Of a DNA stretch of 64,000 bases, positions 46,979 to 63,199 are shown in pieces. The stretch spans positions 1,732 to 65,731 of the forward strand of contig CAVSQR010000043.1 of the NCBI GenBank assembly GCA_963729825.1. The letters run 5' to 3'. The position numbers and the translations under genes were made by a program. Origin of the DNA: an uncultured delta proteobacterium. Its GTDB lineage: Bacteria; Desulfobacterota; Desulfobulbia; Desulfobulbales; SURF-16. The notes beneath the pieces were generated by a model, which was given only the letters and a program-made list of their open reading frames with translations, ran no database searches and had not been told where the DNA came from. Position 1 is the first letter of the stretch. Every line of letters starts with the position of its first letter.

Positions 46979-48127
46979 TTCTTCAGTACCTCCTTCACGG
47001 CCTGCACCACATCATCCACATCCTCCTCGGTCATGGCCGGGAAAAGCGGCAGGGAGCATATCCTGGCGGAGTTCCACTCCGTGTCGGGCAGGGTGCCCAG
47101 CAGCTCCGGGCGGGACTCGCGGTAATATTTCTGGGTATGGGCGGCCAGGAAATGGATGCCGCTGCCGATGTTTTTCTTTTTCAGCTCTTCCATAAAGGCA
47201 TTGCGGCTCATGCCTGCCCGCTCGGTATCCAGGCGGACGATAAAGAGGTGCCAGGCGTGGCGCATGTCATATTCCGGCACGGCCAGGGGCAGGATTTCAT
47301 CCACCCCGGCCAGCAGCTGGTGATAACGGGCGGCAAGTGCGGCCCGTCTGGCAATGAAATCATCCAGCCGCTTGAGTTGCCCGAGCCCGAGAACCGAGGC
47401 GATATCGGTGAGGTTGTACTTGTAGCCCGGCTCCAGGACCTCGGCCTGGGGGCTGCGGCCCTGGCTCTTGCGGTCATAGGCGTCAACGCCCAGCCCGTGA
47501 AATTTCAGGCGGCGGATGGCATCAAGCAGGCCGGCATCATCGGAACAGAACATGCCGCCTTCACCGGTGGTGATGTTCTTGATGGGATGAAAGGAAAAGA
47601 TGGTCGTGCCCGCTGGCGCCGATTTTTTGCTGTTTATACTCGGTGCCGGCGGCATGGGCCGCATCTTCCGCCAGGGCGATTGATTTATCAGCGCAGAGGC
47701 GGCGGATGGGGTCCATATCCGCGGCTGCCCCGGCAAAATGAACCGGCACGATAAGCCGGGTGCGCTCGGTGATGCAGGGTTCGATATGCGCAGCCGTGAC
47801 CATCAGGTTGTGGCGGTCGATGTCGGCAAAGACCGGCGTGGCGCCGCAGAGGACGATCATATTGACGGTGGATACCCAGGTCATGGACGGGGTGATCACC
47901 TCATCCCCGGGGCCGATGTTCAGGGCTTTCAGGAGCAGGTGCATGCCGGCCGTGGCCGAGCAGAGGGCCACCCCGGCCCCGGCCCCGCAGTAACGGGCAA
48001 ACGATTCCTCGAATTCGGAGGTTTTCGGGCCGGTGGTAATCCAGCCGGAGCGCAGCACCTGGGCCACGTCCTCGATTTCCTCTTCGCTGATGGAGGGTTT
48101 TGAAAAGGGGAGAAAGCTTTCTCGCAT
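46975..48127 (-). CDS. arnB: UDP-4-amino-4-deoxy-L-arabinose aminotransferase, frameshift near 47610
   Basis: [29 protein letters not shown] and GYKYNLTD. Confidence 0.92.
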
Positions 48128-48212
48128 GACTATTTCCCTGGAAAAATTGAACATTAAATCAGATCCACGGTTTTATACATTATTTTCATGAAGAAAAGGT
48201 GAATTTTTTTTA

Positions 48213-48253
48213 TTGCACATTTTTTTTTCCGCACTAATATGACCACCTGGTCA
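48213..48253 (+). promoter_or_regulatory. Sigma70-like promoter with an overlapping palindromic operator upstream of the TetR gene
   Basis: TTGCAC-16nt-TAATAT (48213-48240), overlapped by the perfect inverted repeat TGACCA-CC-TGGTCA (48240-48253), 4 nt before the ATG. Confidence 0.6.
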
Positions 48254-48257
48254 CATC

Positions 48258-49041
48258 ATGGAAAACCTACAGCAATCAGCACGAACGACATTCAGCAACC
48301 TGCCGCCGGAAAAGCAGGAGAAAATCGTTGACGCAGCGGTGAGGGAATTCGCCCGGCATGGCTATAAAAAAGCCAGCATCAACACCATTGTCAGGGATGC
48401 GGGCATTGCCAAGGGATCGCTCTATCAGTACTTTCATAATAAGGAAGAACTTTTTGTCTTTATTTTTGAGCGCTTTACCCTGCTGGTAAAAAAAGCGGTC
48501 GCCGAGCAGGGACGCTCAAATGTCGCGCGAGCCAGGGAAGGCGAAAGCACGGCCGCCGAGCAGGGACGCTCAAGTGTCGCGCGAGCCAGGGATGGCGAAA
48601 GCACGGGAGTCGGCTCGGAGCATGATTTCTTCAGCCAGGTCGGCAGGGTGCTGCTGGCCGGCATTGAATTTATTGACCGCCATCCTGAATATTTCCAGAT
48701 CTATCTCCGGGTGCTGTTTGAACAGGATGTGCCCATGCGGGAGAAACTGCTGGCCCAGGTCCGGCTTTTTTCCCGGGAGTATTTCGGGCCGACTGTGCCA
48801 GGCAGGTCAGAAGAGCGGCGCCATCCGCCGGGATGTACCGCTGGCGGTGGTGATTTTTATTTTGGACGCCACACTTGATCGTTTTCTGCAGGGTTATGCC
48901 CAGGGCGCCCTTGACCGTGATCTGGATCTGGTGCAGCGCAACAGAGAGGAGCTGCTGGCCCGGATAAAGATGATTCTGCAGGTGTTGCGGGAAGGACTGG
49001 CGGATGGCGGGACGGGGCAACAGGCGACAGGCAGAAGGTAG
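48258..49041 (+). CDS. TetR/AcrR family regulator with an in-frame 2x54-bp insertion, frameshift near 48792
   Basis: EFARHGYKKASINTIVRDAGIAKGSLYQYFHNKEEL HTH; the C-terminus lies in ORF 48520-49041. Confidence 0.88.
48501..48605 (+). repeat. Tandem 54-bp duplication inside the TetR coding sequence
   Basis: GCCGAGCAGGGACGCTCAA(A/G)TGTCGCGCGAGCCAGGGA(A/T)GGCGAAAGCACG at 48501 and 48555. Confidence 0.9.
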
Positions 49042-49102
49042 AAGGCAGAAGACAGAAGGCAACTGGCAAAAAGAGACTTTCAGACCAAGAGGGTGAGATT
49101 TC

Positions 49103-50200
49103 ATGGACGCATATGTGGAAAAGGCAGGGCTCAATGATATCCTGCAGAAAATAAAAAATAACGAGAGGATCAGCCGGGAAGACGGCATCAGGCTCTATCA
49201 GTCTCCCCATCTGCTGGCAGTGGGCTATCTGGCCAATATCGTGCGGGAACGCTTAAACGGCGGCAATGCCTACTTCATCTACAACCAGCATATCAACTAT
49301 TCCAATATCTGCACCAATCTCTGTAAATTCTGCGCCTTCGGCAAGGACAAGGATTCCGACAAGGCCTACGAGATGACCCGGCAGGAGGTGGCGGCCAAGG
49401 TGCGGGAACGCCTGGATGAGCCCATCACCGAGATCCACATGGTGGGCGGAATCCATCCGGATCTTCCCTTCAGCTACTACACTGGATCTGCTTCAGGAAA
49501 TCAAATTGGTCCGGCCCGAGGTCCACATCCAGGCCTTCACCTGTGTGGAGATCGATCATCTGGCCAAACTTGCCGGCAAGCCGGTGGACCGTACCCTGGA
49601 GGATCTCATGGCCGCCGGGCTTGATTCCATCCCCGGCGGCGGCGCCGAGGTGTTCAGCCCGCGCATCAGGAAGCTGACCTGCGAAAAGAAGCTGTCCGGC
49701 GAAGGGTGGCTGGAGGTGGCCAAGACCGCCCATCGGCTCGGGTTGAAGACCAATGCCACCATGCTCTACGGCCATATCGAGACCGTTGAGGAGCGGATCG
49801 ACCATCTCGACGCCCTGCGCCAGGCCCAGGATGAGACCGGCGGCTTTCTCGCCTTTATTCCCCTGGCCTTTCATCCGAAGAACACCGAGATGGCCGATCT
49901 GTCACGCACCTCCGGTATTGATGATCTGAAAAGCATGGCCGTGGCCCGCTGTTTTCTCGATAATTTCCCCCATATCAAGGCCTACTGGGTGATGATCGGG
50001 CCGAAGATGGCCCAGGTCGCCCTGTCCTTTGGCGCCGATGATGTGGACGGCACGGTCAAGGAGGAGATCATCACCCACATGGCCGGGGCCGAGACCGAGC
50101 AGGCCATGTCCGATGCGATGAGCTGGTCCGGCTGATCAAGGAGGCGGGCCGCACGCCGGTGCAGCGGGCACGCTGTACGATGTGATTAAGATGTATCATT
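49103..50200 (+). CDS. mqnE: Aminofutalosine synthase (radical SAM), frameshifted; end approximate
   Basis: HINYSNICTNLCKFCAF, EIHMVGG, PGGGAEVF, NATMLYGHIE, HIKAYW and GTVKEE. Confidence 0.88.
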
Positions 50201-50266
50201 CGATGGTTGACTGGTCATCACGCACATGGCGGCATGGACAGCAGGCATCGACGGACAGGACGCGAG

Positions 50267-51330
50267 ATGAGCGAAAGACATCATCGGAAAGTGGAGGCCG
50301 GGCAGCGCATCAGCGCGGACGAGGGTTTGCAGCTGCTGCGGGACGGGGATCTCTATCAGCTCGGCGTTCTGGCGGACACCATCCGCAAAAGGCTGCATCC
50401 CGAACCGCTGGTCACCTATGTGATCGACCGCAATATCAATTACACGGATATCTGCATCTCCGCCTGTAAGTTCTGCGCCTTTTACAAGGCCCCGGAGGAC
50501 GCGGCGCGGTTCGGTGCTTTCCTTTGAGCGAACTGGGCAAAAAGATTGAGGAGACCAAAGAGCTTGGCGGCACCCAGATTCTGCTGCAGGGCGGGCTGCA
50601 TCCGGACAAGCCCCTGGAGTTTTACGAGGAGATGCTGCGCTTCATCAAGGGGTACGGCATCCATATCCACGGTTTTTCCCCGCCGGAGGTCTGCCATTTT
50701 GCCAATCTGTCGGGACTGTCAGTGTCAACGAGGTGCTGATCCGGCTGCGCCAGGCCGGGCTTGATTCCATTCCCGGCGGCGGGGCGGAGATCCTGTCCGA
50801 CCGGGTGCGGCAGGAAACCGCGCCGCGCAAGTGCTCGGCCGATGACTGGATCGAGGTGATGGAGGAGGCCCATAATCTGGGCATGCGCACCACCGCGACC
50901 ATGATGTTCGGCCATATCGAGACCCTGGCCGAGCGGCTGGAGCATCTGGAGCGGGTCCGCGCGCCTGCAGGATCGAACCGGCGGCTTCACCGCCTTTATC
51001 CCCTGGCCCTTTCAGCCCGACAATACGGTCTATGCCCATCTGCCCAAGACCACGGCCTTTGCTTACTTAAAGATGCTGGCCCTCTCCCGCATCTTTCTCG
51101 ACAATATCGACAATATCCAGGCCTCCTGGGTGACCCAGGGACCGAAGATCGCCCAGCTTTCCCTGTTTTTCGGGGCCAATGATTTCGGCAGCACCATGAT
51201 CGAGGAAAACGTGGTGGCCGCGGCCGGGGTCAGTTTCAGGCTGTCCGAGGAGGAGATCCGCCGCATTGTCCGCCAGGCCGGGTTTGCCCCCAGGCAGCGC
51301 ACCATGGATTATACCCTGGTGGGGGAGTGA
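50267..51330 (+). CDS. mqnC: Cyclic dehypoxanthinyl futalosine synthase (radical SAM), frameshifted
   Basis: VTYVIDRNINYTDICISACKFCAF, QILLQGG, TATMMFGH, QASWVTQG and DFGSTMIEENVV. Confidence 0.9.
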
Positions 51331-52527
51331 GCAGGGCCATGCTGCTTGTGCACCGGGCCCCGGTGGTGCTGCCGATCAGCGCCCCGCCCATCAGCGATGG
51401 GGCCATACTCACCGAAGGCGGGGTTATTGTCGAGGTAGGGCCCTTTGCCCGGCTGCGGGGCAGGGGGCAGGTGCGGGACCACGAAGGGGCAATCCTGCTG
51501 CCGGCCCTGATCAACTGCCATGCCCATCTGGAGCTTTCCCACCTGGCCGTGCTCGGCCAGCGGCAGCTCCGCGAGGGTGATATGACCGGCTGGATCGGTG
51601 AACTGCTGGCCGCCCGGCAGCATTCGGCTGATGACGGCTCAGCCGCGGGGCGTCTTGCCCTGGACGCCCTGCATGAGCAGGGGGTGGGCCGGGTTGCCGA
51701 TATCGGCAATCTGCCCGGGAGCGCCAAAATCGGCGAGGGGCACCCGGTTGCGGTCCATTTTTTTCTGGAGATGCTCGGTTTCTCCCAGCATTCGGCGGCC
51801 AATGCCCTGGCCAGGATGCAGGAGAGCCAGGGTGACTGCACCAGCCATGCCCCCTATTCCAACCATGCCCGGCTGCTGGTTGCGGCAAAACAGCGGGCAA
51901 ACAGCAGAAACCAGATATTTCCCATTCATGTGGCGGAATCACGCGCCGAAATCGATCTGCTGCTGGATGGTTCCGGGCCGCTGCGCTGCTTTATCGAGGA
52001 ACGGGGCTTCTGGGACGGCTCCTTTGTGCCGCCCGGCTGCGGGGCGGTCACCTATCTGGACCGGTTGGGCATCATCGATGACAAAACCCTCTGCGTGCAT
52101 TGCGTGCACGTCACGGACGAAGAAATTGCCCTGCTTGCCGCAAGACAGGCCAGGGTGTGTCTGTGTCCGGGCAGCAACAGGCAGCTGGGGGTGGGCAGGG
52201 CGCCGGTGGAAAAAATGGTGCAGGCAGGCATGGTGCTGGGGCTGGGCACGGACAGTCTGGCCAGCAATCCGCAGCTCTCCATCTGGGAAGAGATGCGTCT
52301 GCTGCGCGAGGACCATCCCCAGCTTGCCCCGGCCACGGTGCTGGCCATGGCCACCCGGGGCGGGGCGCAATGTCTGGTCCGCAGGTGATAGCGGAGAGCT
52401 GGCCCCGGGCCGGCGGGCGGACATTATCGCCGCTCACGCCCAGGGGATAAGCGCCGGCAATGCGGATGATTTTCTGACCAGTGCGGGGAAAAACCTGCGG
52501 GTCCGCTGGGTCGAGGAGGCAAGCTGA
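51327..52527 (+). CDS. Amidohydrolase, probably aminodeoxyfutalosine deaminase; frameshift near 52378
   Basis: LINCHAHLELS, HAPYS, HVAES, CPGSN and GTDSLASN motifs; position between mqnC and mqnA. Confidence 0.8.
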
Positions 52528-52528
52528 G

Positions 52529-53346
52529 ATGAAAGCGCGTATCGGTATGGTTAACTTTATCAACACGGCGCCGCTCTATGTGACCTGGCAGCAGCGGGCC
52601 GCCAGGCCTGACTGGCTGGTGACCGAGGGGGCGCCGACCACCTTGAACAGGATGCTCTGCGCAAATGAGCTTGACCTGGGTTTTGTCTCCTCCCATGAAT
52701 ATGCGGCCCATCCCCATCTGTACCGCATCCTGGAGGATATTTCCATCAGCTCCTCCGGGCCGGTGGGCAGTGTCTTTCTCTTTTCCCGGCTTGCCCCGGA
52801 AGAACTGGCGGGCAGAAAGGTGCGGCTCAGCACCCAGTCGCAGACCTCGGTGGCCCTGGTGAAGATCATCCTGGAGGAGTTTTACCGGGTGCAACCCCTT
52901 TACCACACCGGCAACAATATGGAAGGCGACGAGGTGAGCGGGGTGCTGGCCATCGGCGATGAGGCCCTGCGGCTGAAAACCAACGGGGATTATCCCTTCT
53001 GTCTTGATCTGGGGGAGACCTGGCAGCAGCACACCGGGCTGCCCTTTGTCTTTGCCGTCTGGGCGGTGCGCGAGGATTTTCTGGCCCGGCAGCCCGGCTG
53101 CGTCAGTGAAATCCGGCGCTGAGCTGCTGTCCTGCATCCGCGAAGGCAAGGAAAAACTGCAGGCGGTCTGCACGCCAGGTGGCGCCGAGAATTCCCATGA
53201 CCGTTGATTCATGTTATAAGTATCTCCTCGGTATTGAATATGATCTCACCCCGCAGAAGATGCAGGCGCTGACGCTTTTCTTTGATTTTCTGATCAAACG
53301 CGGCGAGGCGCCGGCCGCAGCCCTGCCGGTAAAGGTGTGTAGGTAG
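52529..53346 (+). CDS. mqnA: Chorismate dehydratase, frameshifted near the 3' end
   Basis: VNFINTAPL, GPVGSVFL, SQTS, IGDEAL and DLGETW..TGLPFVFAVW. Confidence 0.88.
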
Positions 53347-53590
53347 TCTGGCTGGTCTGACTGGTCTCACTGGTCTTGACTGGTCCGAACGGCATGAGCT
53401 AAAAGACGAATGAGATCAATGGCTTTTCTTCGCTACGGCGAAATCTTAGGGCATAGGAGCGGGCCTTGCCCGCGACTAATTCGGATGCCAAAGAGTACGC
53501 GGGCAAGGCCCGCTTCTACAGCCCGGAGGATAAGCGAACATAACGGCAGGGACCTAAGACCAATAAGACCAGTAAGACCAATAGGACTAA
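53344..53590. repeat. Nested intergenic repeat: inverted 9-mer arrays enclosing an inverted REP pair
   Basis: Units like CTGGTCTGA (53344-53386) face units like AAGACCAAT (53550-53590). Inside are TAGGAGCGGGCCTTGCCCGCGA and CGCGGGCAAGGCCCGCTTCTACA (53454-53520). Confidence 0.8.
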
Positions 53591-53595
53591 AAACA

Positions 53596-54303
53596 ATGCA
53601 AACTCCGGATGAAAAGAAAACATTCGTCAAAGAGAAGTTTTCTTCCATCAGTCATAAATATGATTTTCTGAATTCACTGCTCAGCTTCCAGATCGACCGT
53701 TACTGGCGCTGGGTCACCACCCGGGAGCTGAAGATGTTTCCCGACGGGGCGGTGCTCGATCTCTGCGCCGGCACCCTGCCCCTTTCCCTGGAGCTGACCC
53801 GGCAGGCCCCCGCCCGGCAGGTGGTGGCCATTGATTTCTGCGAGGACATGCTGCGGGCAGGTATCAAGACCCTGCCCGCGGACAGCCGGCGGCAGCGCAT
53901 TTTTCCGGTCTGCGGGGACGGGGAAAAGATCCCGGCCCGGGATAAGAGCTTCTGGGGGATAACCGTGGCCTTCGGCGTCCGCAATCTCGGCCGCACCCAG
54001 GATGGCTTAAACGAGATGCACCGGGTGCTGAAACCCGGCGGCAAGCTGCTTATCCTGGAGTTTTCCAGGCCCCGGAATGTCATCGTCAAACCGGTCTACA
54101 GCTTTTATCTGAACACGGTGCTGCCCAAAGTCGCCGGTATTGTCTCCGGCGACAAGGAGGCCTATGAGTATCTGGCCAGCTCCATTGCCGCCTTTTATGA
54201 ACCGGAGGAACTGCTGGGCATGATGAAAAAGGCCGGTTTTGCCGAGGTATCCCGCAGGCCCTTGACCTTTGGCATTGTTTCCGTGTACATAGGCGTCAAA
54301 TGA
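53596..54303 (+). CDS. menG: Demethylmenaquinone methyltransferase (UbiE/MenG)
   Basis: YDFLNSLLSF, VLDLCAGT, AFGVRN, RVLKPGG..ILEFS and AYEYLASSI. Confidence 0.9.
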   Translation: MQTPDEKKTFVKEKFSSISHKYDFLNSLLSFQIDRYWRWVTTRELKMFPDGAVLDLCAGTLPLSLELTRQAPARQVVAIDFCEDMLRAGIKTLPADSRRQRIFPVCGDGEKIPARDKSFWGITVAFGVRNLGRTQDGLNEMHRVLKPGGKLLILEFSRPRNVIVKPVYSFYLNTVLPKVAGIVSGDKEAYEYLASSIAAFYEPEELLGMMKKAGFAEVSRRPLTFGIVSVYIGVK

Positions 54304-54864
54304 AAAAGATTATCCTGGCAATAACCGGAGCCAGCGGCTCTCTCTACGCCGTGGAGTTTCTGCGGCTGGTGAGTGAACTTGATGTGGAGGTGCACGGCTA
54401 TCATCTCCGGGGCCGGCGAGAAGGTGCTCGGACTCGAGGAGAAACTCGCCCCCCGGGACCTGACCACGGTGCGGCAATGGTATGCGGTTGACAATCTGGC
54501 CGCGCCCATGGCCAGCGGCTCGGCCCGCTATGATGCCATGGTGGTGCTGCCCTGCACCATGGGGACGCTGGCGGCCATAGCAAACGGCCTGTCGCTCAAT
54601 CTGATCCACCGGGCCGCGGATGTGATGCTGAAAGAGAGAAAACCCCTGGTGCTCGCCGTGCGCGAGACGCCGTTTAACCGGACTCATCTGCAGAATATGC
54701 TGGCCGCCTCGGATGCCGGGGCCATCATCTGTCCTGCCATGCCGGCCTTTTACCACCTGCCGGAAAATCTGCGGGACATGGCCCGTCATTTCGCCGGCCG
54801 GGTGGCTGCCCAGATCGGTCTGCAGGTTCCGGGACTGAAAGCGTGGAGTGGTATTGATGTTTAA
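54300..54864 (+). CDS. ubiX: Flavin prenyltransferase, frameshift near 54395
   Basis: AITGASGSLY, ASGS, PCTMGTL, RAADVMLKE, RETP and PAFY. Confidence 0.92.
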
Positions 54865-55710
54865 GAAGATTGCCATACTGCTGGAAATGATTAAATTCGA
54901 GCATACGGTCTTTGCTCTGCCCTTTGCCCTGATGGGGGCCTTTCTGGCCCAGGGCGGGGTGCCCCGGGGAATTGTCTTTTTCTGGGTGGTGATGGCCATG
55001 GTGGGGGCGCGGACCTGCGCCATGGGTTTTAACCGCATTGCCGATGCCCGTTTTGACCGGGACAATCCCCGTACCGCGGACCGGGCCATCCCGGCCGGCT
55101 CGGTGCAGATGTGGGAGGCCTGGACCATGGTGATCTTGGCGGGGCTGCTCTTTTTTTCGCCTGCTTTCAGCTCAATCCGCTCACCTTCAAGCTTTCGCCG
55201 CTGGCCTTAAGCCTCACCCTTTTTTATTCCGTGACCAAGCGTTTCACCTGGCTCTGCCATGTGGTGCTGGGCATTGCCCTGGCCTTTTCGCCCCTGGGCG
55301 GCTTTGTGGCGGTAAAGGGCTCACTGGCCGGCTTCCCCTGGGCGCTTTCCCTGGGAGTGCTCTTCTGGGTCACCGGCTTTGATACGGTCTATGCCTGTAT
55401 GGATGCCGATTTTGACCGGCAGGCGGGGCTTTTTTCCCTGCCGGCCCGGTTCGGGCGGGAAAGGGCCTTTCGCATGGCGGTCCTTTTTCATGTGGTGGCC
55501 TTTGCCCTGTTTGTGGCGACAGGGATAACCTGCCGGCTCAATTATTTTTATTATATCGGCATCGTGTTGACTGCCGGCGCCCTTTTTTACCAGCATCTCA
55601 TTGTCAATCCCAAAAATCTTTCCCGCATCAACATGTCCTTTTTCACCATGAACGGGCTGATCAGCCTGACCCTGTTTGCCGTTACCTGGCTGTCTCTGGT
55701 AACAGGTTGA
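54857..55710 (+). CDS. UbiA-family prenyltransferase (MqnP-like), frameshift near 55155
   Basis: MIKFEHTVFALPFA, ARTCAMGFNRIADARFDRDNPRT, GFDTVYA..D..FD and FFTMNG. Confidence 0.88.
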
Positions 55711-55756
55711 CAAAATTTTCAAGAAAGTCATAAATATAAGTATCACTCGATACATC

Positions 55757-55883
55757 GCGGCAGCTTGACTACTGAAGCTGCCCATGATTTTGTCGATCTG
55801 CCTGCTGAGGTTGGCTTTCGCAATTCCATCAAAAGGACTTTGCCGGAAGCTGACCTGATCATCCAGATCCCCATTGTTGCCGC
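55757..55883 (+). ncRNA. Candidate structured RNA (5' leader or sRNA); family not recognised
   Basis: Nested stems pair 55757-55764 with 55876-55883, 55795-55800 with 55864-55869, and 55808-55818 with 55846-55856. An alternative hairpin pairs 55759-55766 with 55775-55782. TTGACA lies at 55707. Confidence 0.4.
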
Positions 55884-55906
55884 AAAACACCAGCAGGGAA
55901 AGAACA

Positions 55907-56935
55907 ATGCCGAAGATAAAAATTTTCACTGCAAAAAATGTCCAGCAGTATGGTTTTACCGACAGGGAAATCGAGGCGCTGAACGCTGAATGGGAGCTGA
56001 AGGCGTCAGAGCTTGGCCTGGAAGAGCATCTTCCTGAATATTGGCAGGAAGCAAAGCGCCACATGAACGAAAAGCTGGCTGGCCGGGTCGCCGAAAGTGA
56101 TGAGCAAAGCGGACCCGGGCAACCGGATGCGGAACCAATCGAGCTGCCTTCCCTTGATGTCAGTCTTGATGATTTTGATATGGGCGAAGAGGAGGAAATA
56201 ACGGCTGTTGATCTGCCTGATGAGGAATTTGAGGTTGAATTCCTGTCCGATGAACTCTCCGAACTGGAACCGATTGCCGGTGATGAGCTGGAGCTGGAAA
56301 TAATCCCTGAAGAGCAGACGGTTGCTCTTGCGGAGATGGCTGAGGAGTCCGCCGCGTTAGAAGGGTTGGAATGGGAGGAGGAAGAGGCTGCTGCAGAACT
56401 GACGATTACAGTTGAAGAGCTGATTCAGGAAGAAGAACCGGCCGAAGAGCCTGCCGTAGACGAGGAACCGGAACCGCAAGTTGAAGAAGCAGCTCCGGAG
56501 CAGGGGATTGCTGTTGAAGAGATGGCTGAGGAGGAAGAACCTGTCCTAGAGCAGCCGGCAACAGCCGCAGAAACGGAATTAGAGCTGGAAGAAGTCGTTT
56601 ATGAACAGACGGTTGCTGTAGAAGAAAAACCTGCTGAAGAGGCTGCAACAGCCGCAGAACCGGAACTGCAGGAAGAAGCCGCTCCGGAGCAGGTGGTTGC
56701 TGTTGAAGAAATGGTTGAGGAGATAGCCGCAGAGGAAAAGATCGTTTCGGCGGCAGAGCCTGGAGTTCGCGCCGGCGGATACAGTCGGGATGCCGGAAAC
56801 TGCTGTGGAAGAGTTCAGCTCAAGAGGAAGTTGCCGAGGAAGAGCCGGCCCCGGTTGCTGAGCAGAAAAAGGAATCGTTTCTCGGAAAAATTATGGCCCG
56901 CCTGAAAAAAATATTCCAAGGGTAAAAAAAAATAG
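55907..56935 (+). CDS. Highly acidic Glu/Ala-rich low-complexity repeat protein, frameshifted near the 3' end
   Basis: ~55-aa ordinary N-terminus followed by repeats such as EEAAPEQxxAVEEM and ATAAExEL; the 3' end appears to read ...KYSKGKKK*. Confidence 0.65.
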
Positions 56936-57564: not shown

Positions 57565-57859
57565 AGGTTCATCCTCGCCTATCGGTTCCGCCCAGGGGCA
57601 AAGTATCCCAATATATGCTCACCGGTAGACCAGTTTTCGTTTGCCAGTCACGAGTAGTTCGTTTTCACCCATCTTGAGTTGAGGGACCAGTAGGAAGGTC
57701 AACAAGAAGTGTTGATAGAATATTCGGACCTTCGAGATGGAAATATTAACACGAAAAACAATAGATTAGCTGATGCATTTTCTGGTTGGAATTAAATATC
57801 GTGTCCCCGGTATACCGGCGAAGTAATTCCGGGCAGTATGCAGTTCGTGACAAATAGCT

Positions 57860-60800
57860 CTATTTAGACCTGGACACATCCAGAACAAACACATCAATTA
57901 GCCCTGTGAGTTCTGGTGGTAGCGTCGCTTCTATGCTGCTTTTTAGTTCCTGGGAATTCCTGATATCGTGTTTTTTACGTCCAGCAACCTTTTCGTCTGC
58001 GCCAAACCAGATTGCGAGGAAAATGCCCTGTTGCTCTGCGTCTGGGTGAATGGAGTAACGTTCATGCAGTTGAGTGGAAGCGGCGCTGTATAGCTCGTCA
58101 TGCCATTGCCCTTTGACCTCAGTAACAAGCAATCGCCTTCTGCCGCCAATCATTTTGGTCGCTGTGAAATCACTCCGCTTTGCACCCTTTAGCTGATGCT
58201 CCGGCGTCACAGAGATGCCTTGCGGTTCAAGCCTCAAATTGAGGCGCTCAGCAATAATCTCAGTAGATCGTACTTCGTCTAGTCGTTCGCCTTTCTCATA
58301 AAAGCGATCTGCCGAGTTGAACTCTCCGCCATCAATAGTTTTCTGGAAGTCTTGAAGCTCTTGGATTACGAGTTGACGCAGACCTTCCACAGTAACTACT
58401 AGGTCGCGGTCCAGTCGATTTACGATTTCCTGTGGTGTTGGCGGTTCGAAATCCCTCAGTGCTTTCCTTCGCACTTGACCGGCATGCATGCTCTTCAGAA
58501 TATTGTGCATGTCGGCGAAACGCGGATCGGCAAGAAGCCGATTGAGGACGGGGATGGCATCATCAGGATCATCTGTATCAATTGACCAAATCACCTCGGT
58601 CAAAAATCGGTATGCTTTCTCTTCTTTGGGGCTATCCGATCCGTAGCTGCTTGGCAGATGCACTTTAGGCCATTTATCGACGAAGGCATCTAAAATGGCT
58701 TCTACCTTGCTCGATGTGAGCTCTGGCCAATAGGAATGATTTCTATAATTCATTCGGCCAGACAGCCCGGAAAGTATAAACACAGTGTCTTTATCTGCTT
58801 TGAGGCAGTCCCAGTACGTTACAGGTGCATCGTCGATAAAGTACCATGCACGCACTAACCAGAAAGTACGCAGTTGTTCGATATCATTATTTTCAGTCCG
58901 CTTGGGCCAGTCGGACATCAGCTCAGAGCAACGCTCTGCGATTATTTCTTTCAAGTCATCTTTGTTGCCATACTGAGCAGCAATTTCAAAAAGTGTATCC
59001 AATGGGCTTAAGGCCAACTCGCGAAAGCGCCTAAGCCACTCAATCGACAGGTTGGCGCGTAAAGGAGAGAAGACCTCATCGCCACGCAAAAACCAAACTT
59101 CAGGATGAGCGCAATTCGGCCGTGCCAGTTGTGGTTCGAGGTACTCACGGAGGTAACGTTCGGGACTTGCGCTATCAGTAAAAATGAGGCGGTCAACTTC
59201 CTTTAATAGTGCTTCAAGTTCTTCTCTAGAGACTGAATCGTAGCCCCCATGAATGTCAGTTCGCAGTGCTCTGAGTAGGCGAAGATCAACTCCTTCCAGA
59301 CTGCCTTTTGCACGCATGATCTCCAAGCAAGCCGCACAAAGGATCCTTATAGAAAGGTAAGCCTTCGATTCACACTGTAATTCAGCCAATTTGGGCAGAT
59401 CGGGGACTTGCGGGGCTATAAAATCGAGGCTGTTTTTAAGCGCATTCCGAAGAAGCTTCTCATCGCCAACTTCGTGCTCAATTTTGTCCGGTTCAAATAG
59501 CACCAATTCGGCAAAGTGGAGTAAGAGACTCCAATGGCGACCACCTTCAACAAGTTCCCGGTTGTCTTGAATATACTTGAATCTTTGCAACGCGGTTGTC
59601 TTCTTGCTGCCTGTCGGAGCCGCTTCATACGGGTTTCGGCCGAAACCCCATTCTCGATGGTTTCTCGTTTGAATTGCTTGGCTCTTGCCCTGTTAATATT
59701 AGCCCACTCTCGCATAAATAATGGCTTTTCCTGTGCTTGTTCACGCATGTGACGTCGCAAAGTGTCAACGCCTCGGTCCTCCTTATTTCGATAGAACTGG
59801 TGTGTTGCCATGAAACTTTCCCACAAGATTGGGTTGTTAGTCTCAAAAGCCAGATCAACTACGTATTTGTAGTCATTTGTACGAAAATTAAGGCCGGAAT
59901 GGGCGTGTGAATCGAACTTATTGATTCGGGTGTCGAAAATCTCGTCTCGGTCAGTCAGTTTCCCGAAGACATGAGCGATAATCCCTTGGCGAAGATCATC
60001 ATCTTTTTGAAGCACTTGAACAGCCTTGCTTTGCTCTTGGCTTTTGGGCCCATGGAAGTTCAGATTTCTGAGCCATTGCCAAACCCGTATTGGATCAAAC
60101 GGAGGGTTGGCTAGATCGAAGTACCGATCCAGCATTGACCCCACGATCTTGCTTATTCCGTTTCGGCAGTCACATTCATAAGGCTTCTTGCCGCACACAC
60201 AGACTAGGTCTTTGGTTAATTCATCCAAAAGCCACTCAATAGACTCAAAATCAAGACCTTTGATGAATTTCTTCAGGAAGTAGAGCTCACCAATTGTGCG
60301 CCCATATCGTTCTTTGTGGCCAGGATAAAGTTTTGCGCAGACCCGAAGGAATTCTGCAAGATAAACCCGCTCGAACGTTTCTGGGCCAAGCGTTGCGATA
60401 GTCTCAGCCGCAAGAATGAGTGAAGAAATACTGGCATCAGAAATAAGAACGTCTAAGTTAGAGCGATGGTCATAACCGGCGATATCAAGCAGATAGTTAT
60501 TCGCCAACCTACGACTGTGCTTGTTTCCATCCGGTGTTAAAACGAGTTTGCGCAACTCATCTCTAAGTTGTTCGATTGCTGGTGATCCTGCCAGGAGCTC
60601 AAGAATCAGATCGCGCAAGTGCCCGTCACTTCCAACCACAAGAAGTGGTTTGATTTCTTCTAGCACCTCTGGAGTGAAGAAACCTGCAACACTAAATCGG
60701 CGCTCCCAATCTCCTCTTCGAAAGTATGGGTCCACCCCTTCAATATCTTTCAGTCGATTTATAAGCAGGCGTTTTGACGAATGTTCAAGTTGGGAAGGAT

Positions 60801-61890
60801 CGCCGTTCGCTAGTACTGCATAAGCGTCAAGTTTGATAGCGGCTTCTTCGATAGATCTGACGCCTAATGCTGCCATCCAGCCCAACAGTCCCCGTAGTTC
60901 ATCTCGCACTGTGGAGTTTGGAGCGATAATAGGTAGGCACTTGGGTAGAGTCAGAGGGTCTGCCGGGTCTGCTATACGCTTGGTGAGATAGTTCGCTGCG
61001 CAGTACTCAGCGACAATCTTATGAACCCAGCGATGCTGGTCGGCACTGTCTCCCGGCTTGAATAGACGGGTTGTGAGTATACCTTCAGCCGCAATGTCGC
61101 CGTCAAATAGTGCCGCCAACAATGGATACATCCGATTTTCGCTGGCTTCGCTTATGGAGATTCCTTCTGCACCGGACAACAAGAGCTTGGCGAAAACTTC
61201 CGACGCCATGTCAACTTTTTGAGTGATTGAAAGTCCCGGATTGCTTCTCGCTACATTGGGGTTTGCTTCCTTCGCTAGACGTTCGACCGCTTGAACAAAG
61301 ATTGATCGTTTGTCGGTGAAGTGTCTTCCGCTCTCGATATAAGCATCAGCAAACAGTTTTAGAAATTGTGGGTTTGGGAGAAGCGTTTCCAAATCAAATC
61401 GAGCAACCTCGGTCTGGAACGCTACAAAGTCCTCTCCTTGCAGATGGTGTTCAAAGATCGCCCGCTGTTCCGCTTCATCAAACTCGCATAGCCGAACCAC
61501 AAAAGGTTTGTGTCCGAAAAAGTCTTTGAAGGCGTTTGATGCAGCGCTGTCCCACTCGCTGGATCGGCTCGACAAGAAAACATGGGTCGGCTTGGCAGCT
61601 TCAGCTTTACCAAAAAGCTTGTAAATGCCGGATGAGTCCACTTTTGCCAACTCATCAAATGCGTCAATCACCAGCGGAATATTGTTCGCCGTTGATCCAA
61701 CATATACAAATTTACTAGCTGTAACGACCGATGTGCCCATCTGTTGGGCAAGACTCCCCATAAGTTCAGTTTTTCCACCGCCGGGTTCGGCCAATACAAC
61801 GACATACTTAGAAGCGGCGAGCAACTCCGTTTCAGTGTAAGTCTTGTCATTGCCAGAGAGACTACGTGGAAGGTAGAAAGTTGAATTCAT
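57860..61890 (-). CDS. Large NACHT/STAND-like NTPase with a C-terminal PD-(D/E)xK-like nuclease domain (~1340 aa; split near 59600-59660)
   Basis: Walker A LAEPGGGKT, Walker B LVIDAFDE, LSSR, NPQFL and HKIVAEYCAA; long helical middle; C-terminal PEH...KRSDFT...LVTEVKGQW...TQLHERY. Confidence 0.75.
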
Positions 61891-62299
61891 ATGTGAATGA
61901 TATTTATCAGCATCCATTTGGTGAATTCCGGGTACACCATAATCAACTGCCGGTCTAGATATTTCCAAATTATGGGTACTATTCTATTCGGTGCAATAAT
62001 GTGCAAGGAAAATATCATGTGAGTGTAAGTTTGGATTTGCGGACTGTAGGCTTGAGATGCGACTTGGAAAGGTTAATGTCTGGCAGACTTCCCGGACCTG
62101 AAGACTATTCCTGAGTATACGTAACAAAACCTGTTTTTTCTTTTTAGATTAATTAGTTACATATGTATGATTTTTGTCGTTTTCTTATTGAAAGTCAAGG
62201 TTATTCTCCGCACCAGCGGAGGGGAAAGCCAATTGTGAGAATGGGCTCTAAAAATTGCTCGTCGGAACAATTGGCTTTTGCCGTAGCGGCTTTCTCCCT

Positions 62300-63199
62300 C
62301 TAATTTGTAACCCCTGTGGTTTTCGTTACTGTTTTCTTCAGCACTTTGTCCATGGCAGTGTAATAGTCACGCTGTGCCTTAACGTTAGAAAGCCTGCTAT
62401 AGCGTTGGGTTGTCTCAATACAGTTGTGCCCCAGGATATCCTGAATTGTAACGAGATCGGCATCAGCGTTGAGCAACTGAGTGGCCATAGTATGGCGAAG
62501 TCTATGGCAGGACACAGCTATGCCGCTTTTCTTTGAGTAATACTCTATCCGTTTCTGGATACCACGCACTGATATGGGCTGGCCTCTGCAGCATCCTTTC
62601 TCTACAAGAAAAACTTTCTGCTCTTTCGTGACTGGTCTTTTTTGGAGATAAACAGCCAAAGCTTCCGCAGCATCATTGCTGATATATACAACCCGGTCTT
62701 TGGCACCTTTGCCACTTCTGACCATGATTTGGTTACGCTGGTAATCAATGGCGCCAAGAGTTAAATGTGCCACCTCTTCAACACGCATTCCACAGCGCAG
62801 CATCAGCATAAAAATAGCCATATCCCTGTTCTTCTTGATACTGTGGAGGAATATTTCAACATCGCTGTCTCGTAAGTGTTTTGGGAGAGGGCTGGGGAGT
62901 CGGAGTGCCAGCTTTTTGATAACCGGGTTAACCACTTGCAACTCTTCCTCGTCTCTCAGGTAACTATAAAATCTGCGTATCGCTATCAGATGTGCATTGA
63001 TAGTTTGGGCAGACAATCTTTTTTCGAGAAGCACATCGATATAATCCTTCACATCCTGCTTTACGACTGCTTCAACAGGAACGGCAGCCCATACCATGAA
63101 CTGTTTTAATCTGTGCAGGTAATTTTTAACCGTGTGAGAGGCCAAGTTTCTTCTCTTCAAATACCGCCTGTAACGGAGAATTGACTCGGTGAGATTCAT
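62300..63199 (-). CDS. Tyrosine recombinase/integrase (XerC/D fold)
   Basis: N-terminal SAM-like domain; CGMRVEE, GKGAKDR, HRLRHTMAT, LGH and TTQRY give a full catalytic set. Confidence 0.93.
   Translation of the reverse strand: MNLTESILRYRRYLKRRNLASHTVKNYLHRLKQFMVWAAVPVEAVVKQDVKDYIDVLLEKRLSAQTINAHLIAIRRFYSYLRDEEELQVVNPVIKKLALRLPSPLPKHLRDSDVEIFLHSIKKNRDMAIFMLMLRCGMRVEEVAHLTLGAIDYQRNQIMVRSGKGAKDRVVYISNDAAEALAVYLQKRPVTKEQKVFLVEKGCCRGQPISVRGIQKRIEYYSKKSGIAVSCHRLRHTMATQLLNADADLVTIQDILGHNCIETTQRYSRLSNVKAQRDYYTAMDKVLKKTVTKTTGVTN

Follow-up and report, generated by a model that had tools for sequence, protein, structure and literature searches.

Locus and family identity

The stretch analysed here, called the window throughout, comprises 64,000 nucleotides (nt) from an uncultured delta proteobacterium (GenBank assembly GCA_963729825.1, contig CAVSQR010000043.1, positions 1,732 to 65,731), and the gene in question, which resembles those of the EruA family of antiphage proteins, lies near its right end. 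Two minus-strand open reading frames (ORFs) overlap there by 175 nt, one at 59416-61968 (850 amino acids, aa) and one at 57860-59590 (576 aa). Homologues of about 1,342 aa align in tblastn comparisons from the methionine at 61890, the same gene end that an earlier sequence-only reading had given, and keep to one frame as far as about residue 758. The alignment resumes at about residue 771 in another frame and continues to the end of the protein, with 78% identity in both parts.

Both ORF pieces match one model in NCBIfam 20.0, NF058535 (NACHT domain-containing antiphage protein EruA), an equivalog of 1,318 positions. The first piece covers profile positions 10-752 (E 1.6e-245, 818.3 bits) and the second positions 748-1318 (E 3.4e-186, 621.8 bits), and a six-frame search of the genome gives the same coverage by two pieces. 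A point against the assignment is that neither piece alone reaches the curated cut-off of 1000 bits (818 and 622). The intact homologues compared, which are 35-78% identical to the first 758 residues of the gene, score 1128-1481 bits in seven cases out of seven. The family is large, with more than 1,000 homologues, mostly of about 1,341 aa, and 1,588 representatives of 50%-identity clusters at E<=1e-3; along the first ORF piece the window's copy is 67-79% identical to the 120 best members in the database.

Judged by these matches, the gene can be classed as an ordinary member of the already named EruA (Erebus)/Avs10 antiphage family, and its layout as the family's normal one. Like EruA/Erebus it encodes about 1,341 aa with a bare N-terminal P-loop nucleoside triphosphatase (NTPase), a helical sensor and a C-terminal D...ExK domain, and it is likewise a single-gene system with a patchy distribution across phyla; there is no difference of kind. 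What sets this copy apart are two probably spurious extra bases and its place in a subfamily that bears a cluster of four cysteines (Cys4).

The sequence-only reading had proposed a new anti-phage system with a reversed layout of the nucleotide-binding, leucine-rich repeat (NLR)-like kind. The claim of novelty falls because the match to an already named system runs from end to end, and the layout taken for unusual is standard in the EruA/Avs10 family. As a discovery the locus is thus of little value, the "reversed" arrangement belonging to a family that is both named and experimentally tested. What endured is the description of a single-gene NLR-like antiphage protein with an N-terminal NTPase and a C-terminal nuclease-like domain.

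Absence from PADLOC had been put forward as a sign of novelty, and it does not serve as one. PADLOC v2.0.0 (2023) returns only P-loop noise from IetA, at E 0.02-0.03 for the first ORF piece, and this silence is due to the age of the library. Since PADLOC v2 and Pfam-A both miss EruA, which NCBIfam 20.0 names, a lack of hits in older catalogues should not be counted as evidence of a new system. The names also scatter the literature: no defence paper came up under EruA, HyoA, Eru or Hyo, the connection being made through Erebus, Hypnos and Avs10, and within the literature searched the name bNACHT64 was found in the Avs10 paper only.

The sister family HyoA/Hypnos (NF058534) shares the idea of a NACHT domain combined with a C-terminal nuclease, as far as the NCBIfam names and the grouping under Avs10 indicate. 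Its model matches the middle region of this protein at E 6e-18, and the intact homologues at 1e-15 to 1e-34. HyoA differs in that these matches amount to 64-118 bits against its cut-off of 1200 bits, and in that its model is about 110 positions longer.

The break in the reading frame

Compared with the homologues, the reading path runs to "...RMKRLR", continues as RQQEDNRVAKI in a second frame (59580-59612) and then passes to "KYIQDNRELVEGG..." in a third. Frameshift-aware alignment recovers both single extra bases in 7 of 7 and in 10 of 10 homologues. When the whole gene was aligned in this way to two homologues, both gave two frame changes and no more, and no other stop interrupts the approximately 1,340 codons. 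Under a lenient penalty, six of ten homologues also favour a compensated frame excursion from about 59660 to about 59638. The earlier placing of a sequencing indel near 59600-59660 was probably right as to its nature, while the position, 59579-59619, falls at the low edge of that range.

Contigs of other public metagenomes (X1-X4) were aligned to the gene. X3 (6,531 nt, depth 8.4) is about 94% identical, with 232 differing letters over 57968-61888. It is one base shorter than the window at each of 59614 and 59581, as well as at 59633, and two bases shorter at 59660. The 264-nt contig X2 has no substitutions over 59595-59862 and lacks one base at 59615 together with three further letters. The weight of these contigs is lessened by the depth of X2, which is only 2.8, and by X3 representing a different strain. 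Among the public sequencing runs none holds more than 0.20 of the sequence words, and runs X1 and X4 gave short pieces that leave the break unbridged.

The flanks of the gene carry the same kind of error. In comparison with five same-genus loci, counting positions covered by at least three same-genus genomes at which the window differs from all those covering, the 5,871 positions hold 11 sites with private indels of 1-2 nt, and ten of the 11 are extra bases. UbiA is found in two pieces (54848-55210 and 55111-55710), an SpoU/TrmH methylase in three (L012 2622-3625), and several other genes of window 48000-55800 match only part of a Pfam profile. The assembly is indel-prone: errors of this kind number about two per kb, and most of them are spurious insertions.

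Because X3 lacks both extra bases and the flanking housekeeping genes show the same indel pattern, the break in the gene is very likely an assembly artefact made up of two spurious single-base insertions, and the real gene is probably intact. If the frameshifts were real, the EruA gene of this strain would be a recently inactivated pseudogene. That would take the given assembly, with its two uncompensated extra bases, at its word, and a survey of 80 loci from named genomes counts in its favour to the extent that 12 of them are split or truncated, so broken copies do occur (63 are single ORFs of 1280-1420 aa and five run off the contig). It would also oblige UbiA and SpoU/TrmH, conserved housekeeping genes next door, to be broken by similar private insertions (11 sites in 5.9 kb), which is not credible biology, and the extra bases are missing from near-identical contigs elsewhere, while the gene has no further stop or frame change. 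Inactivation is for these reasons unlikely.

It is barely conceivable that the two long ORFs with their 175-nt overlap are a naturally split pair of working genes, one for an NTPase-sensor protein and one for a sensor-nuclease protein. Three frames are needed within 41 nt, 11 third-frame codons still match the homologues, the second ORF lacks a start at the boundary of homology, and most of the loci surveyed hold the gene as one ORF. A break recurring at the basic linker was considered as well and rejected, as the ends of short homologues are spread evenly from residue 182 to residue 1219 with no cluster at the linker. Returning to the assembly artefact as the preferred explanation, other apparently broken genes in this genome should be regarded as artefacts too until reads show otherwise.

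Domain architecture and proposed mechanism

The N-terminal module carries both motifs of a STAND/NACHT NTPase, the Walker A pattern GxxxxGK[TS] and the Walker B pattern hhhhD[AG]xDE. In family alignments of 24 sequences (A2) and 76 sequences (A3), P36, G37, G39 and K40 are invariant in both and T41 in A2; D79 and E80 are invariant in both, and D76 is invariant in A2 and nearly so in A3. Among 106 close full-length homologues, GGGKT is present in 100 and DAFDE in all. Against this stand the Pfam scores, which fall short of the gathering cut-offs for NACHT (PF05729; 16.5-19 bits, cut-off 26.7) and for nSTAND3 (18.9-20.1 bits, cut-off 27.2), and the match of only ten of 24 family members to Pfam NACHT at E<=0.01 (best 1.6e-4).

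Structure models cover residues 1-758 and the C-terminal 196 residues. The AlphaFold2 model of the former, built with 75 diverse relatives, has a predicted local distance difference test score (pLDDT) of 91.1 and a predicted template modelling score (pTM) of 0.80. It runs from an alpha/beta NTPase core through a helical block to three short strands at 243-288, and from there to 757 there are helices only. The order of elements in the model is the one expected for the nucleotide-binding, helical and winged-helix domains of a STAND protein, and by secondary structure only it fits the helical and winged-helix motifs and long helical region that had been read from the sequence.

The P-loop lies at residues 36-41, and with only 35 residues before it there is no N-terminal effector, as had been surmised. 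In the accessible part of the Avs10 paper, Avs1-4 (AVAST) and Avs7 are described as STAND NTPases whose large helical sensor binds to a conserved protein of the phage, whereupon oligomerisation switches on a nuclease effector (PMC13581612). The AVAST (Avs1-5) layout, with the effector N-terminal to the NTPase, is not found here: Avs1-4 and Avs7 carry the effector on that side, whereas in this protein nothing but residues 1-35 comes before the P-loop, and the nuclease-like domain stands at the C-terminus.

The cysteine cluster previously noticed in the helical region is located in a coil or loop between helices 548-559 and 577-593 of the N-terminal model. A CxCx(6-8)CxC motif occurs in 105 of the 106 close full-length homologues and is absent from two distant family members, so the cluster seems to be specific to the subfamily of this copy, with more distant members lacking it. 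A lesser possibility is that the Cys4 knuckle is a metal site of the sensor needed for recognition of the trigger.

The terminal segment with E..D..EVK..QLxxxY was also borne out. The last approximately 140 residues carry RSDF, TEVKG and QLHERY, in which D, E-V-K and Q-L....Y are invariant even among relatives only 24-26% identical. The model of the C-terminal 196 residues (23 homologues; pLDDT 83.8, pTM 0.81) has the order helix, three strands, helix, strand (alpha-beta-beta-beta-alpha-beta). In the numbering of this 196-aa domain, D94 starts the second strand (95-101) and E111-V-K113 lies in the third (104-114), so that the conserved D...(D/E)xK stands on the second and third core strands, as in PD-(D/E)xK nucleases. 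The best matches in a Foldseek search of the Protein Data Bank (PDB) are mostly restriction endonucleases together with Mus81 (EcoO109I, BbvCI, BamHI, FokI, OkrAI, PaqCI).

Several results weigh on the other side. The Foldseek matches have E values of 3e-3 to 0.1 and template modelling (TM) scores of 0.22-0.44, none reaching E<=0.001. Pfam, searched with the last 196 and the last 136 aa and with E values as high as 10 allowed, had no match, nor had PADLOC v2.0.0 with the second ORF piece, in which this domain is included. The name Pfam has for the domain is that of a domain of unknown function (DUF8371), and a PDB sequence search with two family profiles rendered only P-loop noise and a match to alphaRep repeats, and no solved structure belonging to the family. 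With strand order and motif on one side and weak fold matches on the other, a nuclease fold is supported by motif and topology rather than proven. The domain may be described as PD-(D/E)xK-type nuclease-like with a predicted restriction-endonuclease-like topology. NucS and SfsA are PD-(D/E)xK nucleases. The part of a review that was available links the NACHT proteins of van den Berg with NucS and SfsA (PMC13276650), which would accord with a nuclease at the C-terminus.

Experiments on family members are described in the Avs10 work (Nature 2026 and preprint; PMC13581612). In the portions of both that were accessible, Avs10 (Erebus/Hypnos/bNACHT64) sensed major capsid proteins and caused death in a cell-death screen, its sensor was modelled on the A-domain of the capsid protein, and Kibby 2023 and van den Berg 2024 are cited for these systems. 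Capsid-protein-triggered cell death and antiphage activity are thus on record for family members, as far as those portions of the paper go (PMC13581612).

There is a high probability that the locus holds one horizontally acquired, EruA-family, single-protein NLR-like antiphage receptor, with a proposed Avs10-like mechanism and with an artefactual split in a gene that is probably intact. By analogy with the published Avs10 and other Avs proteins, the sensor would bind the newly made monomer of the phage major capsid protein, the NTPase module would then oligomerise, and oligomerisation would bring the C-terminal nuclease domains together. DNA would be degraded, and the infected cell would die before the phage matures. 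For this copy the whole chain of events is inferred from its relatives; the catalytic motifs (Walker A, Walker B, D, ExK and Q....Y) are intact.

A family member that works differently from the Avs10 model, either with another trigger or with a DUF8371 domain that is no DNase (acting on RNA or in assembly only), is rather improbable. Such a departure would suit the weak fold evidence from Foldseek and the subfamily-specific Cys4 cluster, and the authors of the Avs10 paper, in its accessible part, leave room for other, noncanonical activators (PMC13581612). It sits poorly with the (near) invariance of D, ExK and Q....Y across members that are 23-78% identical in the N-terminal 758 residues, and with the secondary-structure order of the C-terminal model, which is that of a canonical PD-(D/E)xK core. 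The intact homologues moreover score above the cut-off of an equivalog model that was made for the protein tested, and Avs10 homologues are reported, in the same part of that paper, to respond to capsid proteins (PMC13581612). An Avs10-like mode of action remains the preferred proposal. The positions of the features described above, and of those flanking the gene, are given in Table 1.

Table 1. Positions of the EruA/Avs10-family gene, its parts and the adjoining recombinase module (window coordinates unless stated otherwise)
Feature	Position	Strand	Basis or remark
Whole EruA/Avs10-family gene, about 1,341 codons with the two extra bases discounted	57860..61890	minus	NF058535 and tblastn
First reading-frame piece, residues 1-758 (NTPase module and first part of the helical sensor)	59617..61890	minus	AlphaFold2 model
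Walker A, P36-G-G-G-K40-T41 (counted from the Met at 61890)	61768..61785	minus	Alignments
Walker B, L73-V-I-D76-A-F-D79-E80	61651..61674	minus	Alignments
Cys4 cluster, CVCGKKPYECDC, residues 564-575	60166-60201	minus	Homologue comparison and model
Break region	59579..59619	minus	Frameshift-aware alignment; extra base at 59613-59619 and extra base at 59579-59585
Last reading-frame piece (second part of the sensor and C-terminal domain)	57860..59578	minus	Stop codon 57860-57862
C-terminal nuclease-like domain, Pfam DUF8371	57863..58450	minus	Model, motifs, Pfam 38.1 naming
Conserved D	58169-58171	minus	Alignment
Conserved E-V-K	58112-58120	minus	Alignment
Conserved Q-L-H-E-R-Y	58055-58072	minus	Alignment
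Xer-like tyrosine recombinase 1	62300..63199	minus	Pfam Phage_integrase 1.3e-35
Xer-like tyrosine recombinase 2, 395 aa	63126..64000, continuing about 313 nt past the window (L012 1358-2545)	minus	Pfam Phage_integrase 9.6e-36
16-nt perfect inverted repeat, left arm	62114..62129	plus	Brackets both recombinase genes
16-nt inverted repeat, right arm	About 385 nt beyond the window end (L013 10117-10132)

Probable horizontal spread and flanking elements

The guanine-cytosine (GC) content stays at 0.44-0.50 between about 57000 and about 64400 and is 0.58-0.65 on either side, and two genes of the Phage_integrase family lie beside the EruA-like gene, which agrees with the sequence-only reading of AT-richer DNA next to two integrases. 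A quick tree of 81 rows places the window's copy in a clade of 31 rows (support 99) in which four phyla are mixed (Pseudomonadota 19, Cyanobacteriota 5, Thermodesulfobacteriota 4, Verrucomicrobiota 1). The nearest row is a metagenome-assembled genome of Desulfocapsa with 82% identity. Nucleotide similarity to 11 other loci from four phyla ends at the gene borders. The low GC content, the clade of mixed phyla and the similarity that stops at the gene ends together suggest horizontal acquisition.

The DNA shared across phyla (57772-61906 compared with L027-L104, 65-82% identity) consists of the ORF and short margins, no more than 16 nt on the upstream side and about 90 nt on the downstream side. 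Since the shared DNA is confined to the ORF, the transferred unit looks gene-sized.

Among 60 relatives of the host, a full-length family member is present in two only, and these are distant (22-29% identical). One is from the same genus (G008, L003 1486-5574) and one from the same order (G053, L004 1414-5493). In each the EruA-like gene is one ORF (1,362 and 1,359 aa) matching the EruA profile over its whole length, with 861 and 793 bits. They differ from the window's copy, of which they are not orthologues, in their low identity, in scoring below the 1000-bit cut-off and in lacking the Cys4 cluster. With this locus EruA gains a further copy, in an environmental genome; the eight same-genus relatives that were sampled are without this form.

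The neighbourhoods of the surveyed loci were compared in search of a conserved partner gene, and none recurs in more than four of the 80; this is a single-gene system. A DUF4143 gene as partner is likewise not seen among the loci of this subfamily. Within 4 kb of 53 loci, 140 of 301 ORFs match 85 PADLOC families at 1e-10, including DRT UG5, Shedu SduA, GajB, DrmD and PD-Lambda-2. At a distance of 5.5-10 kb the corresponding figures are 140 of 265 ORFs and 73 families, mostly restriction-modification methylases. Near and far ORFs show no clear difference in defence genes, the comparison being one without a genome-wide background.

The two recombinase genes overlap and form a module of 2.29 kb (62114 to about 64400; L013 7846-10132) that is single-copy in the genome. 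The module is inserted directly after the stop of an SpoU/TrmH-type methylase gene, at the right edge of the low-GC stretch. For the inverted repeat that brackets it, two matches were found where 0.05 were expected, and none of 200 shuffles reached two. The NCBIfam Xer models score under their cut-offs on recombinase 1. As partners of the antiphage gene the integrases were rejected: any tyrosine-recombinase match (24-29% identity) is found in the flanks of only six of the 80 homologous loci, so they are not part of the system. That EruA might travel as a cassette the size of a gene, with small recombinase modules like the adjoining 2.3-kb one capturing or moving it, is quite improbable; if true, it would give single-gene defence systems a route not yet described.

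The left flank conserved in the genus reaches to about 56916 and the right one begins at 64463, and no relative was found with both flanks adjacent as an empty site. Rfam gave no match, no tRNA lies near the island, and promoter and terminator scans returned results at chance level.

A second copy of the right flank is present in the genome bin (G000 contig C46:1-3546 compared with L012 2884-6522, 93-95% identity). This copy begins with the very first base of contig C46, near the border of the island. It suggests a mix of two strains, one of them possibly without the island.

Two further features lie to the left of the island. A palindromic element of about 66 nt resembling a repetitive extragenic palindromic (REP) sequence is located at 53454-53519 (window 53346-53600). 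It has 25 matches in its own genome and is also numerous in each of the eight same-genus genomes, and tandem heptamers (CTGGTCT-like) occur on both sides of it. At 55874-56905 a very acidic protein of 343 aa is encoded by glutamate-rich repeats of 84-105 nt; it has no family match and is kept, with variation in the repeats, in two same-genus genomes.

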